Shown piece after piece: positions 27,470 to 32,678 of a stretch of 64,000 nucleotides of DNA. The stretch comes from Escherichia coli (GTDB lineage Bacteria > Pseudomonadota > Gammaproteobacteria > Enterobacterales > Enterobacteriaceae). The notes beneath the pieces were generated by a model. It did not search any database. It saw only the letters and a list, made by a program, of their open reading frames with translations, and was not told the DNA's origin. Positions within the stretch are counted from its first letter, which is position 1, and every line of letters starts with the position of its first letter. The position numbers and the translations under genes were made by a program. The stretch lies in NCBI RefSeq assembly GCF_029227855.1, contig NZ_CP074356.1; one strand, 5' to 3'.

Positions 27470-27745
27470 CTGCGCTAGCGCAGGCCAGAAGAGGCGCGTT
27501 GCCCAAGTAACGGTGTTGGAGGAGCCAGTCCTGTGATAACACCTGAGGGGGTGCATCGCCGAGGTGATTGAACGGCTGGCCACGTTCATCATCGGCTACA
27601 GGGGCTGAATCCCCTGGGTTGTCACCAGAAGCGTTCGCAGTCGGGCGTTTCGCAAGTGGTGGAGCACTTCTGGGTGAAAATAGTAGCGAAGTATCGCTCT
27701 GCGCCCACCCGTCTTCCGCTCTTCCCTTGTGCCAAGGCTGAAAAT
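27470..27745 (+). promoter_or_regulatory. lysC leader containing the lysine riboswitch (L box); boundaries approximate
   Basis: Long GC-rich structured 5' UTR directly upstream of lysC with conserved-looking segments (agaggcgc..., ...gggggtgcatcgccgaggtgattgaacggctgg...); the E. coli lysC leader is an established lysine riboswitch. Confidence 0.65.
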
Positions 27746-29118: not shown

Positions 29119-29262
29119 TATTTCCCTACTGGCGTATAACGCTCACCGATTGTTATACGCCATCCTCACTGAAAACATAGATTAAATAATATCTGAAAAG
29201 CAAAATCACTCCTGTAGAACAGTATTATAATCACCGAAAAATATCATTTAACAGGAGTGTTA

Positions 29263-30189
29263 ATGGCTACTTTAATGGAAAAAGATGCACTTTTAAACGG
29301 AGCCAGTCAGTGCATCGCGTTTTTATCAAATATCATTGATAATTGCTCAGTTTCGTCGCATCAGGATTCAGGCGATGCTCTCAAGCGATTAGTCAGCTAT
29401 CGCGATTATCTTTATTCTACCCCCGCTGAACTTGTTGATTTTACACAAGGTAAGATTCTCCTTCAGCAGGTAAGAACTCAATATCAGCATGAATTCAACA
29501 ATACTACGCATTCAGAAAATAAAGCATCTTTTGATTCTATTTGGCAGCGTCTGACAAATCATGAAGTCACACCGCAACAGCATCCCATTGGTTTTGTTTT
29601 AGGTGGGCAACCCGGAGCAGGTAAATCATCTCTGATTGAATTAGCCAAAAGAGAGACAAAAGATAATATAATGATTATTAACGGTGATGATTTTCGATTT
29701 CTACACCCTGATTTTAATTATATCTACCAAAATTATGGGGATGATTTTGTTACCCATACAGCGAAATTTTCCGGCGAAACGGTCGAACGTGCAATTGAGA
29801 GAGCGATAGTCAGTAAACTCAACATTGTTGTCGAAGGAACATTTCGTAATGCCGCGACGCCGTTACAAACATTAAAAAAACTCAAAGATGCAGGCTACCA
29901 AACAGAAGTCATGATAAAAACAACCTCAGCGGCATTAAGCTGGGAAAGCACCAATGAACGGTATAGTAAGGACAAAGAGGCGGGAAATATTGCCCGAAAA
30001 GTGGATAAAAACCACCATGATATCGTCACCGGTTTGCTGGCAGAAAATGCCCGCAAGGTGTTTGCTTCGAACCTGTCAGATAAGTTTGCGGTGTATTCGC
30101 GTGAGAAGATGATATTTAGTTCACAAGCGGCAACGAATGACGATATTGCAACACTTATACAGAATGAAATCAGCGGGAATACACAATAA
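29263..30189 (+). CDS. Zeta-toxin-like P-loop kinase with an N-terminal extension of about 100 aa; accessory, AT-rich
   Basis: Walker A GGQPGAGKS, Walker-B-like hhhhEG (NIVVEGT), overall zeta/PezT-like layout; ATG at 29263 preceded by aggag; the ORF track extends to a GTG at 29257; markedly lower GC than lysC. Confidence 0.7.
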   Translation: MATLMEKDALLNGASQCIAFLSNIIDNCSVSSHQDSGDALKRLVSYRDYLYSTPAELVDFTQGKILLQQVRTQYQHEFNNTTHSENKASFDSIWQRLTNHEVTPQQHPIGFVLGGQPGAGKSSLIELAKRETKDNIMIINGDDFRFLHPDFNYIYQNYGDDFVTHTAKFSGETVERAIERAIVSKLNIVVEGTFRNAATPLQTLKKLKDAGYQTEVMIKTTSAALSWESTNERYSKDKEAGNIARKVDKNHHDIVTGLLAENARKVFASNLSDKFAVYSREKMIFSSQAATNDDIATLIQNEISGNTQ

Positions 30190-30224
30190 TAATAAGAGCT
30201 GATGGCGTGAAATAACGCCGGGCT

Positions 30225-31025
30225 TTATGCCCGGCGCATTACCGTCTGGTACATTAAGCTATCCAGTTCCTTAACGTCCCCTTCTCTGCTATCCGGTAAC
30301 AGCGGTGGAATTTCCCCACGCGCCTGTTCCGCACGAATAAACGCATGTAACAATGGACGGCGCGGACCATATTCCGCTTCTCCTGCGCGCTGTTTACGTT
30401 CCAGTAATTCGTCTATTTCTGCACGTAACGGCGCATCAAGTTCGCTTCCCGCCAGTAACTCAGCAAAGCGCATTGGCGGCACGCCTTTTCCCGCTTCGAC
30501 CCAGCGCACGGCCAGCAGCGGACGCAGCACGTAAAAGTATTTTTTCAGTCGAACTTCATCGCCCTGCAAATATCCGCGGAAGTTTTTCTGCGCCATCGAA
30601 TAGTAATGCCAGCGCGCACGCAGCGGAGAAAACCACATTGGGACCATTGCCTTAAGCGCCGTTATCGTTTCTTCATCTTGTTGATAGACCACCGGAGAAT
30701 CCAGCCATTCTATCAGCGTCGGGTTCGCGCCTTTCAATAATCCCAGCGCCTTACGCCACTCCCAACCGGAAACATCTAACTCGTCGTCGATGGGCAGCTC
30801 GATAACATCGCGCGGCGGCTCCACCCGCAGATACCATTCCAGCGGGTGAACATACAAAAACCGTACATCGTAGTCGCTGTCGGGCGAGGCAAACCCCCAG
30901 CCGCGGCTCCCGGATTCACAGGCATACAGCACTTTCACGCCGTAGCGCCGTTCTATTTCTTTTAACTGCTGCGATACCCGTTCGCGCATCGCAGCACTGA
31001 CTCCATTTAATGGCATGTTACTCAC
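30225..31025 (-). CDS. Pol-beta-superfamily nucleotidyltransferase-fold protein (minimal NTase plus helical C-terminal region); accessory
   Basis: Motif YACESGSRGWGFASPDSDYDVRF (G[GS]...D.D NTase signature); starts at GTG 31025 overlapping the upstream stop (GTGA) or at ATG 31016. Confidence 0.65.
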   Translation of the reverse strand: MSNMPLNGVSAAMRERVSQQLKEIERRYGVKVLYACESGSRGWGFASPDSDYDVRFLYVHPLEWYLRVEPPRDVIELPIDDELDVSGWEWRKALGLLKGANPTLIEWLDSPVVYQQDEETITALKAMVPMWFSPLRARWHYYSMAQKNFRGYLQGDEVRLKKYFYVLRPLLAVRWVEAGKGVPPMRFAELLAGSELDAPLRAEIDELLERKQRAGEAEYGPRRPLLHAFIRAEQARGEIPPLLPDSREGDVKELDSLMYQTVMRRA

Positions 31026-32149
31026 CCTTTGATATTAACCAACCCATGCAGAACCTGATCCAGACCGCCAAATACAGAGATGTTATCGATCCGCTCAGCC
31101 ACTCTCTCCAGCGTTTCTAGCTCTTTTAAACGCAACGCTACCGGATTGTTCTCCATGACTTTGGCGGTGTTCAGTAACGAGCGCGTCGCTGCCGTTTCTT
31201 CACGTCGGCGAATCACATTCGCCTGCGCAGATTTCTCCGCCTCAACCAGCTGCGCAAGGATATTTTTCATATCGCCAGGCAGGACGATATCTTTCACCCC
31301 TAATGAAGCAATCTCCATACCAAATGGCAACATGCGCGATTTCACCTGTTCGCTGACAACGTCATCAATGACCTGTTTATCTTCCAGCAGTTCATCCAGC
31401 GTACGAGTACCTACCGCTTCACGCAGGGCAAATTGCAATTCCCGATACAAATGATCAATCGGCTTCGTTAACTGACTAAATGCCAGCAACACGTCGCTGT
31501 AGCGCCAGTTAGCGGCGAGATTAATCCGCAGATTGACCTTATCTTTCGTTAAGATTTCTTGCCCGCTGACTTCCAGTACCTGCAAGCGGGTGTCGACAAC
31601 TTCAGCCTCAACCAGATGATTTATTTTCCAGTATGCTGTCAGCCCCGGCGGTAACAGCGCCTGCGTTTCACCATCGATTTTCAGCACGCCTACATGCCAG
31701 GCCGGAACCTGCACCGTGAGTATCGCATCGCGGCCTTTAACTGCCCCTTTGCGCCGTGGTTGCAATACCGCATTCATCACCTCCGTTTGTACCTGGACTT
31801 GCTGCGTATTCATCCGCACCAGTGTCAAATCATCTTCTACACGCCAGTACAAACGGCGCGTTGATGGCGGCAGAATCTCCAGCAAAATACCGTCCATATA
31901 CAACGCCCCGGCTTCAATCTCCGACAAGTCTGCCACCAGGCAATATTTCTCCACCCAATCAGGCTGAAAGCGGCGCAAATAATCCGCCAGCACGTCGGGA
32001 ACTTCGCTGCCATCGAGCGTAATCAGCAAGACTTCTGGCGTATTTAACCAGGGTAAAAGATGCTCGCCTGCATGCAGCACTTTGTAGTAATCGCCATTTC
32101 TGGAGAGTAATGCCAGCTGATCTTTTCTTACGCTTATTTTCTTAATCAT
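31022..32149 (-). CDS. SPFH/band-7 (stomatin/prohibitin/flotillin-like) domain protein without an obvious N-terminal transmembrane segment; accessory
   Basis: C-terminal half (...LTKDKVNLRINLAANWRYSDVLLAFSQL...GMEIASLGVKDIVLPGDMKNILAQLVEAEKSAQANVIRRREE...) resembles SPFH domains; RBS-like aagga 6 nt upstream of ATG at 32147-32149. Confidence 0.65.
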   Translation of the reverse strand: MIKKISVRKDQLALLSRNGDYYKVLHAGEHLLPWLNTPEVLLITLDGSEVPDVLADYLRRFQPDWVEKYCLVADLSEIEAGALYMDGILLEILPPSTRRLYWRVEDDLTLVRMNTQQVQVQTEVMNAVLQPRRKGAVKGRDAILTVQVPAWHVGVLKIDGETQALLPPGLTAYWKINHLVEAEVVDTRLQVLEVSGQEILTKDKVNLRINLAANWRYSDVLLAFSQLTKPIDHLYRELQFALREAVGTRTLDELLEDKQVIDDVVSEQVKSRMLPFGMEIASLGVKDIVLPGDMKNILAQLVEAEKSAQANVIRRREETAATRSLLNTAKVMENNPVALRLKELETLERVAERIDNISVFGGLDQVLHGLVNIKG

Positions 32150-32678
32150 TATCTATTCCTTGCTTAACAGCCGTCGCGGAAGCAGACACGAAGCGACAGG
32201 GGAATTCCCTTTTGCCTGTTACCCGGCATCTTTATCGGCGACGTTATCGGGGATCGCTGACTGCGCAATCCCTCACTTTTTATTTAATAAGTTAAAACCA
32301 GTATTCATTTCAGGAATGAATGTGGGAATCGAACCCATAATTGGCGTCAAAGGCTGACGGAACACGCCCGGAAAACAGCCTGGCCGTTCCTGGTGTGCCG
32401 ACGGGGTTTGACCCCCTTTGTAATTCAGTTTCAACGCGTACGAGATATTGCGAGAAGCGTGCCAGAATTGAGAAAAAATTATTAACCAAATGAAAAATAA
32501 AGATTTAATAAATTATTTTTGTTTGTAGAGGGAAAACTTTTCGCTAAATTTGTATCTGTATTTATCGTCAATTATCAAGAAAGATAAATATTTAAGAAGA
32601 GAACAAAGGAATATTATCAGTTCAGCTCGCAAACGAATTCCCGTACACTGAACTCTCTGGCTCACTGAGGGCACCATC

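Follow-up and report, generated by a model that had tools for sequence, protein, structure and literature searches.

What does a soluble protein of the SPFH (Band-7) family do next to a Pol-beta-fold nucleotidyltransferase (NTase) in Escherichia coli? The two genes lie together in the 64,000-nucleotide stretch of E. coli chromosome analysed here (contig NZ_CP074356.1 of assembly GCF_029227855.1; hereafter the window), and a sequence-only reading of it had found their architecture impossible to assign to a named system. [quoted passage not shown] We propose, with a probability of roughly 0.6, that the locus represents a pared-down satellite of the Rtc system for RNA (tRNA) repair, one that varies between strains. 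The pairing of Band-7 protein, b7a-tRNA and RlaP was thus already predicted; what we describe is its reduced E. coli form, in which ligase and regulator are not encoded in cis and the RNA is derived.

The SPFH and rlaP genes and their relatives

The window carries pgi, lysC, yjbD, rluF, pepE, yjbB and metH, and the lysC-yjbD interval holds a 3.4-kb accessory segment of three genes: a zeta-family kinase gene is read from the plus strand, and the SPFH gene followed by rlaP runs toward it on the minus strand. Both open reading frames (ORFs) of the pair are present as the sequence-only reading had drawn them, and its two domain assignments stand. Pfam Band_7 (PF01145) matches residues 147-318 of the upstream protein (E 1.2e-23), for which NCBIfam gives a weak HflK/HflC similarity and RefSeq the name "slipin family protein", and the Pol-beta-fold family RlaP (PF10127) matches the downstream protein from end to end (E 1.7e-94). 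The G-S...D-x-D catalytic motif of the NTase, ESGSRGWGFASPDSDYD, is intact, and the protein is 58-62% identical to RlaP encoded in Pseudomonas rtc operons; a sequence search of solved structures found no deposited RlaP relative.

The SPFH protein differs from membrane scaffolds of its superfamily at the N-terminus. No membrane anchor was found, the highest 19-residue Kyte-Doolittle mean over all positions of the protein being 1.13, and a confident AlphaFold2 monomer model built with 40 diverse homologues (mean pLDDT 87) places three consecutive five-stranded beta units ahead of an alpha/beta SPFH core and long helices, which bears out the earlier statement that an anchor is lacking. The three units cover residues 1-69, 70-140 and 141-~200, and HHalign (probability 98%) identified the first two as duplicates of the SPFH domain's own N-terminal beta-subdomain; these two extra copies occupy the place of the membrane anchor. 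Homologues of 500-540 aa with further N-terminal copies occur in loci L018, L031-L033, L035, L038, L041 and L046 and in cyanobacterial loci, so the repeat number differs among lineages. The absence of an NfeD partner was likewise read correctly, since the SPFH gene is flanked by rlaP downstream and by a non-coding leader upstream.

When 1.84 billion representative proteins were scanned without a profile, 543 clusters were recovered at E <= 1e-30, many of which span the whole SPFH protein including its N-terminal repeats, some with extra repeats. A word-indexed protein search yielded near-identical E. coli sequences only, and the diversity considered here was drawn from the representative search and from a genome scan. 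The latter gave 80 related loci from Enterobacterales, Pseudomonas, Burkholderiales, other Beta- and Gammaproteobacteria and cyanobacteria, with full-length matches at 42-84% identity, and neighbouring genes in these and the window (81 loci in all) were found by seeded phmmer searches of all ORFs. RtcB is encoded next to the SPFH gene at 58 of the 81 loci, the activator RtcR, divergently, at 56, RlaP at 34 and RtcA at 20, the typical order being rtcR, then in the opposite direction SPFH, rtcB, rlaP and in some cases rtcA. According to later papers, Burroughs and Aravind (2016) had associated Band-7 protein, b7a-tRNA, RtcB and RlaP (relayed by 10.1101/312249 and 10.64898/2025.12.29.696909); one example, PaFlo8, sits within the rtc locus of Pseudomonas aeruginosa (PMC13086221).

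Elsewhere the two genes mostly co-occur without being adjacent: an SPFH gene followed immediately by rlaP was found only in E. coli and in five other Enterobacterales (L006, L008, L009, L056 and L062), all five of which retain rtcR. No rtcB lies beside or between the two genes in the window; it is located ~690 kb away in the same genome. In a strain identical to the window, rtcR-rtcB-rtcA are intact at their canonical locus, and the three genes have been deleted from the island while being kept at the canonical site of the same chromosome. A simple route to precise loss of rtcB is offered by Phytobacter, in which the SPFH gene and the rtcB gene both terminate in AAAGGATAA, so that a deletion between short repeats would join SPFH to rlaP. 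The direct SPFH-RlaP junction is a secondary outcome of rtcB deletion in a few Enterobacterales. An adjacency derived in this way from a larger RNA-repair operon is no evidence for a dedicated two-protein complex, and the fixed SPFH:NTase stoichiometry that had been read into the coupling is not supported, as most relatives have rtcB between the two genes.

The coupling itself needs a smaller correction. Bases 31025..31022 on the minus strand read GTGA, so that the SPFH stop codon TGA (31024..31022) shares bases with a GTG (31025..31023), and an ATG follows at 31016..31014, separated from the GTG by 6 nt. The overlap and the close linkage described earlier are real, and the linkage is conserved in relatives with the same gene order; the GTG as the actual start is not favoured. 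RefSeq/PGAP places the NTase start at the ATG, and the junctions of Citrobacter and Pseudocitrobacter (AAAGGATAAGTGAAATG), which consist of the stop codon, 5 nt and an ATG, align base for base with that of E. coli (AAAGGGTGAGTAACATG). Because the junctions align in this way, the ATG at 31016 is the homologous rlaP start and the real spacing most likely a 5-nt gap, with AAAGGG in the last SPFH codons most likely serving as a Shine-Dalgarno-like ribosome-binding site for rlaP; the GTG overlap is probably incidental, a by-product of the G that precedes TGA. SPFH and rlaP form one operon, as had been supposed.

Strong purifying selection acts on both genes (dN/dS 0.03-0.07 for the two, 0.05-0.07 for RlaP). 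When the window was compared with a divergent E. coli allele (dS ~0.23-0.25), dN/dS was 0.026 for SPFH and 0.047 for RlaP, and comparison with Citrobacter and Pseudocitrobacter gave 0.04-0.07. The pair is present in 1631 of 5426 complete E. coli genomes (~30%), chromosomal in every case, with both ORFs intact in 1623; K-12 lacks it. The entire 3.4-kb segment is found in 1424 of the 5426 genomes.

The leader RNA upstream of the SPFH gene

Neither RtcB nor RlaP is the partner with which the SPFH family is most constantly found. That partner is a tRNA-like RNA whose gene immediately precedes the one for SPFH, and the sequence-only reading had overlooked it. The T-loop motif GGTTCGAnTCC was found upstream of the SPFH gene at 71 of the 81 loci, often twice at a distance of ~70-75 nt, and ARAGORN, run on the relatives, predicted tRNA genes with unusual or 2-nt anticodons directly upstream of SPFH. 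The Pseudomonas copy matches the Rfam tRNA family at 56 bits, alongside a partial match to the Y-RNA-like YrlA. A covariance model of the b7a-tRNA (R1), built from 29 upstream tRNA-like RNAs, found a match on the strand of the SPFH gene at 59 of 66 non-enteric loci, at each of them no more than ~1.5 kb upstream of that gene; 35 of these 59 loci had contributed nothing to the model. Four of the seven loci without a match have less than 320 nt of upstream sequence. The upstream tRNA-like RNA of the relatives is the b7a-tRNA that Burroughs and Aravind described. At some loci R1 had additional matches to ordinary tRNA genes elsewhere in the locus, and in the window it also matched positions 53410-53483 (minus strand, 30 bits), apparently a normal tRNA gene well away from the island.

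Toward E. coli the match to R1 shrinks. In Providencia, Proteus, Hafnia, Mangrovibacter and Siccibacter the model recovers a minihelix of acceptor stem and T-arm, and in the E. coli/Citrobacter group the T-arm alone, the window match being weak (13.6 bits, E 0.27, model positions 51-65). ARAGORN and Rfam were negative on the window leader, with terminator-like matches below threshold only. Folded as a single sequence, the whole 321-nt leader was unremarkable (z = -1.46), and its structure became visible because relatives were compared: upstream of SPFH, E. coli keeps a ~290-nt structured leader RNA that covaries across genera. In domain 1, 94% of cells are paired and 15 of 27 pairs show compensatory change, a level reached in 0 of 500 shuffles, with 40-50% in slid controls. 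Domain 2 behaves alike (93% paired, compensatory change in 14 of 22 pairs, a level that none of 500 shuffles reached, and 33-49% paired in slid controls); as a sequence motif it was found at 8 of 80 loci, in Enterobacteriaceae only. By eye, compensatory differences between the E. coli, Phytobacter and Pluralibacter sequences can be made out in the 7-bp hairpin that follows the T-arm. As a whole, the leader of E. coli is best understood as a remodelled RNA derived from the b7a-tRNA.

The link to tRNA ends extends to a locus without RtcB and RtcR genes nearby. In Acaryochloris marina (L076, 7027-10360), a pair of tRNA-like genes stands in a row with genes for a long SPFH homologue, a polynucleotide kinase (PNK)-like P-loop kinase and a Thg1-like protein, and neither RtcB nor RtcR is encoded within 8 kb. 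This combination supports a theme of tRNA-end repair independent of RtcB, and such repair, rather than RtcB itself, appears to be the constant theme of the SPFH family. Several Burkholderiales and gammaproteobacterial loci have 4-18 ordinary-looking tRNA genes beside SPFH, often with an HNH endonuclease gene; these arrays may be spare tRNAs against anticodon nucleases.

Promoter, RtcR and neighbouring genes

Upstream of the leader lies the element TGGCAC-N5-TCGCA, which we take to be a near-consensus sigma54 promoter; it resembles the promoter of the canonical E. coli rtcB, TGGCACGACGGTTGCA. Farther upstream are repeats that form a putative RtcR-binding region and a relic of the rtcR 5' end (Table 1). 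The same repeats and relic are kept ~100 nt upstream of yjbD in island-free, K-12-like genomes (L085 and L086), and their retention suggests that the module is ancestral at the yjbD site, that rtcR was lost first and that the remainder was later deleted in most lineages. Could the canonical RtcR serve the island instead? It shares 62% identity with the RtcR that Citrobacter has in the island-type arrangement, and the similarity takes in the C-terminal end that binds DNA; rtcB is present in 4857 of the 5426 complete E. coli genomes. Because promoter and repeats are homologous and a 62% identical RtcR is encoded in the same genome, activation of the island in trans by canonical RtcR is plausible. 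The signal would be broken tRNA, as tRNA fragments with a cyclic phosphate activate RtcR in Salmonella (PMC7790460).

Table 1. Features of the island and its surroundings; positions refer to the window unless a locus is named.
Feature	Position	Strand	Remarks
Zeta-toxin-family P-loop kinase gene	29257..30189	+	Convergent to rlaP; Pfam Zeta_toxin, E 1.8e-40; ~100-aa N-terminal extension
GC-rich palindrome CGCCGGGCUUUAUGCCCGGCG	30216..30236		Between convergent rlaP and zeta genes; sub-threshold Rfam terminator-like stem on both strands
RlaP-family (PF10127) Pol-beta-fold NTase gene	30225..31016	-	263 aa from ATG 31016; alternative GTG 31025 gives 266 aa
SPFH-RlaP junction AAAGGG TGA GTAAC ATG	31014..31030	-	From the sequence and the aligned junctions of relatives
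SPFH/Band-7 ("slipin family") gene	31022..32149	-	Soluble, 375 aa; Pfam Band_7; 3 N-terminal beta-subdomain copies, stomatin-like core, long C-terminal helices
Leader RNA domain 2, long bulged hairpin of ~22 bp	32173..32242	-	Just upstream of the SPFH ribosome-binding site; RNAalifold, 11 Enterobacterales
GC-rich hairpin GGGAUUGCGCAGUCAGCGAUCCC	32250-32272	-	Between leader domains 1 and 2; GCGCAG core kept in relatives
7-bp hairpin AUUCAUU-CCUGA-AAUGAAU	32303..32321	-	Directly after the T-arm
tRNA T-arm UGGGUUCGAUUCCCA	32323..32337	-	T-loop motif at the syntenic position; only clear candidate b7a-tRNA remnant
Leader RNA domain 1, three-way junction	32354..32428	-	Closing helix, GGGG/CCCC hairpin and long bulged arm; RNAalifold, 13 Enterobacterales genera
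Sigma54-type promoter element TGGCAC-N5-TCGCA	32449..32464	-	Same position in the rtcR-SPFH intergenic regions of relatives
TTATC/GATAA repeats TTTATCTTTCTTGATAATTGACGATAAATACAGATAC	32552..32588	-	Align with repeats abutting the rtcR start codon in relatives
rtcR 5' relic, degenerate first codons	32594..32620	-	~30 nt; alignable with rtcR 5' ends from Citrobacter and other relatives; start codon lost
tRNA arrays near SPFH in other loci	L026 6497-6872; L039 5626-7654; L045 6581-6841; L047, L049; L071 215-2455; L073 9986-13697		

The kinase gene on the other side of rlaP is probably a mere neighbour outside the module. Its NCBIfam PezT-like score is 130 bits against a cutoff of 470, and no antitoxin gene of the epsilon/PezA type adjoins it, the 138 nt between the lysC stop and the kinase start being without an ORF. 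Among the 81 loci only the E. coli window has the kinase. The palindrome that separates it from rlaP is likely a bidirectional terminator marking the operon end. In other E. coli, P2-like tail-fibre remnants take the place of the kinase: P2-like tail genes lie at the rlaP 3' end in a second E. coli allele of the island, seen in strains B25FEP (L002, 1-3505) and AR_0013 (L084, 323-1482), and the same junction downstream of rlaP recurs across genera in L003 and L006 (Phytobacter and Superficieibacter). The genes concerned encode gpI, a tail fibre, a DUF4376 protein and a 151-aa ORF product. Their adjacency to rlaP had suggested that the pair is phage cargo; we dropped this idea, as no SPFH homologue occurs in 50,697 phage records and the Citrobacter module occupies the same chromosomal site without phage genes. 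Elsewhere in the window, RefSeq annotates, in the identical strain, an ordinary lysine riboswitch upstream of lysC (~27481-27677, plus strand), unrelated to SPFH-rlaP.

Proposed function and comparison with known systems

Taken together, these features suggest that the island probably works like, and with, the canonical Rtc system. The sigma54 promoter and the RtcR-type repeats would drive a transcript comprising the ~290-nt leader RNA, SPFH and RlaP, and tRNAs broken to leave cyclic phosphates would activate RtcR and so induce the island together with canonical rtcBA. The soluble SPFH protein would probably form a stomatin-like ring or cage, and this assembly may organise repair in a scaffold or chaperone role, with leader-derived RNA as cofactor or decoy. 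RlaP would refill nucleotides trimmed from the 3' ends of cleaved tRNAs, and RtcB would reseal them. Pseudomonas RlaP adds 1-2 nucleoside monophosphates to RNA 3'-OH ends in vitro, prefers damaged RNAs and partly rescues aminoacylation of a tRNA lacking one anticodon-loop nucleotide (preprint 10.64898/2025.12.29.696909). A bolder version, which we regard as rather unlikely, has a soluble, vault-like ring or cage of SPFH bind the tRNA-derived leader, capture cleaved tRNAs and, with RlaP and possibly the zeta kinase acting as an RNA 3'-kinase, rebuild what "smart" anticodon nucleases have excised, for RtcB to reseal, the whole being a portable upgrade that the core RtcR regulon would control in trans.

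Several observations weigh against a satellite of Rtc repair. RlaP leaves a 3'-OH, and RtcB requires a 3'-phosphate, a mismatch that the RlaP authors flag as unresolved (10.64898/2025.12.29.696909). The b7a-tRNA was described in 2018 as a prediction without experimental validation (Wang et al., 10.1101/312249), and in the E. coli leader the cloverleaf has been lost, with the T-arm alone recognisable. The argument for cross-activation by RtcR is one of sequence similarity, and the number of island genomes that also have rtcB, at least 1062 of 1631, is a lower bound by inclusion-exclusion that does not establish full co-occurrence. Finally, P. aeruginosa deleted for PaFlo8 showed no phenotype when growth, virulence factors, motility, biofilm and oxidative stress were assayed, none of which addressed RNA damage (PMC13086221).

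One alternative explanation is that SPFH and RlaP act independently and that their adjacency is a scar of the rtcB deletion, with SPFH and the leader, for example, sequestering or protecting tRNAs or serving as decoys for anticodon nucleases and RlaP working by itself on RNA ends. This would account for the separation of the two genes by rtcB in most relatives, for the 47 of 81 SPFH loci that have no RlaP, for the nearly constant presence of the tRNA-like RNA at SPFH loci, for the occurrence of RlaP alongside other ligases and in phages that lack SPFH, and for the shared AAAGGATAA ends; a decoy role has also been suggested for the tRNA-like YrlA (PMC7790460). Against it, a tightly spaced pair has been kept after rtcB loss in at least six Enterobacterales lineages under strong purifying selection, with both genes under a common promoter and inducing signal, and we consider independence somewhat unlikely. 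A decaying, non-functional remnant of an rtcR-SPFH-rtcB-rlaP operon would explain the loss of rtcR and rtcB, the degenerate tRNA-like RNA and the ~70% of E. coli genomes that have lost the whole module and keep a promoter-distal relic only. The low dN/dS values argue against decay, as do the intact ORFs of 1623 genomes and a promoter and two RNA domains that are conserved across genera with compensatory changes; of all the readings weighed here, this seems to us the least probable.

Might the module instead harm the cell or its invaders? MenT and AbiEii are NTase toxins that block tRNA function by adding nucleotides to tRNA 3' ends. On such a model of an RNA-targeting toxin or abortive-infection device, RlaP would block tRNA 3' ends and SPFH with its RNA would restrain or trigger it, which would suit a strain-variable locus that lies beside phage-tail remnants in some genomes; untemplated addition by RlaP to undamaged or nicked tRNA is expected to shrink the active tRNA pool (10.64898/2025.12.29.696909). 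The same preprint reports, however, that E. coli tolerated RlaP expression for purification, and the family is consistently linked to ligases, a cyclase and the damage-sensing activator RtcR. The anti-phage link entertained in the sequence-only reading found no backing either: PADLOC-DB v2 has no family for SPFH or RlaP and only a marginal hit to the kinase (E 8e-4, no passing domain), and SPFH is absent from the phage records searched. We judge a toxin role very unlikely. A system of three genes that includes the kinase, either as a toxin restrained by the pair or as the wanted RNA 3'-kinase through which RtcB could ligate the products of RlaP, is a shade less likely still. The kinase accompanies the pair in ~1424 of 1631 island genomes with no antitoxin gene adjoining it, and in the cyanobacterium the gene after SPFH encodes a P-loop kinase resembling PNK. 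Characterised kinases of the zeta family phosphorylate sugar 3'-hydroxyls, those of UDP-N-acetylglucosamine (UNAG) in the case of zeta/PezT and of NAD in that of AvrRxo1, which counts in favour of such a system. An RNA 3'-kinase yet to be discovered is also what the RlaP authors postulate and call for (10.64898/2025.12.29.696909). Against this stand the absence of the kinase from all 80 related loci of other genera, its convergent orientation with a terminator-like palindrome between it and rlaP, and its replacement by phage-tail remnants in other E. coli in which the pair is still under purifying selection.

The closest counterparts of the proposed Rtc satellite are the Band-7/b7a-tRNA Rtc operons, such as rtcR-PaFlo8-rtcB-rlaP-rtcA of P. 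aeruginosa. Their SPFH proteins are orthologous from end to end, with the N-terminal repeats included (56-84% identity), and so are their RlaP proteins (58-87%); the sigma54 promoter and the repeats upstream of it are shared, as is a structured RNA ahead of the SPFH gene. Unlike them, the island of E. coli encodes neither ligase nor cyclase nor activator in cis, its SPFH gene directly abuts rlaP, and its RNA is a leader with a T-arm and no cloverleaf. The rsr-yrlBA-rtcBA operon of Salmonella follows a like logic, in that an RtcR/sigma54 operon places an RNA-binding scaffold that forms rings, together with non-coding RNAs resembling tRNA, ahead of the repair enzymes (10.1101/312249, PMC7790460), and the partial Rfam YrlA match of the Pseudomonas b7a RNA adds to the likeness. 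The island differs in having an SPFH scaffold in place of a TROVE/Ro60 ring, in the presence of RlaP, and in a leader unrelated to YrlA in sequence (no Rfam match).

Likeness to other systems is more partial. Compared with SPFH-NfeD membrane scaffolds (stomatin, HflK/C, QmcA-YbbJ and YqiK), the island protein has no transmembrane or hairpin anchor and no NfeD gene; two extra beta-subdomain copies form its N-terminus, and its genomic partners are RNA enzymes. The eukaryotic vault (MVP, vault RNA and TEP1) is an analogy, drawn here from a monomer model only, as the SPFH core is far closer to stomatin than to MVP and has two extra repeats compared with nine. T4-type, Pnkp/Hen1 and phage systems with RlaP homologues (T4 NrdC.11, jumbo phages) place the same NTase family beside RNA end-healing and -sealing enzymes that counter anticodon nucleases, without SPFH (0 in 50,697 phage records) and without a tRNA-like RNA; their ligases are 5'-phosphate ligases, which accept the 3'-OH product of RlaP (10.64898/2025.12.29.696909).

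A role for a Band-7 scaffold and a tRNA-like RNA in bacterial RNA repair has been a prediction since 2016, and the first biochemistry of RlaP, in late 2025, left open the route by which its products reach RtcB. The island presents a minimal form of this system in E. coli, consisting of promoter, RNA, scaffold and NTase, and its interest lies mainly in tractability: its presence in ~30% of strains and absence from K-12 make gain- and loss-of-function tests against defined ribotoxins (colicins E5 and D, nucleases of the PrrC/RloC type) straightforward. If our reading is correct, an accessory locus would be wired in trans into a regulator of the core genome, and the island may help explain why E. 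coli strains differ in how well they tolerate toxins that target tRNA, agents that damage DNA and antibiotics that target the ribosome.

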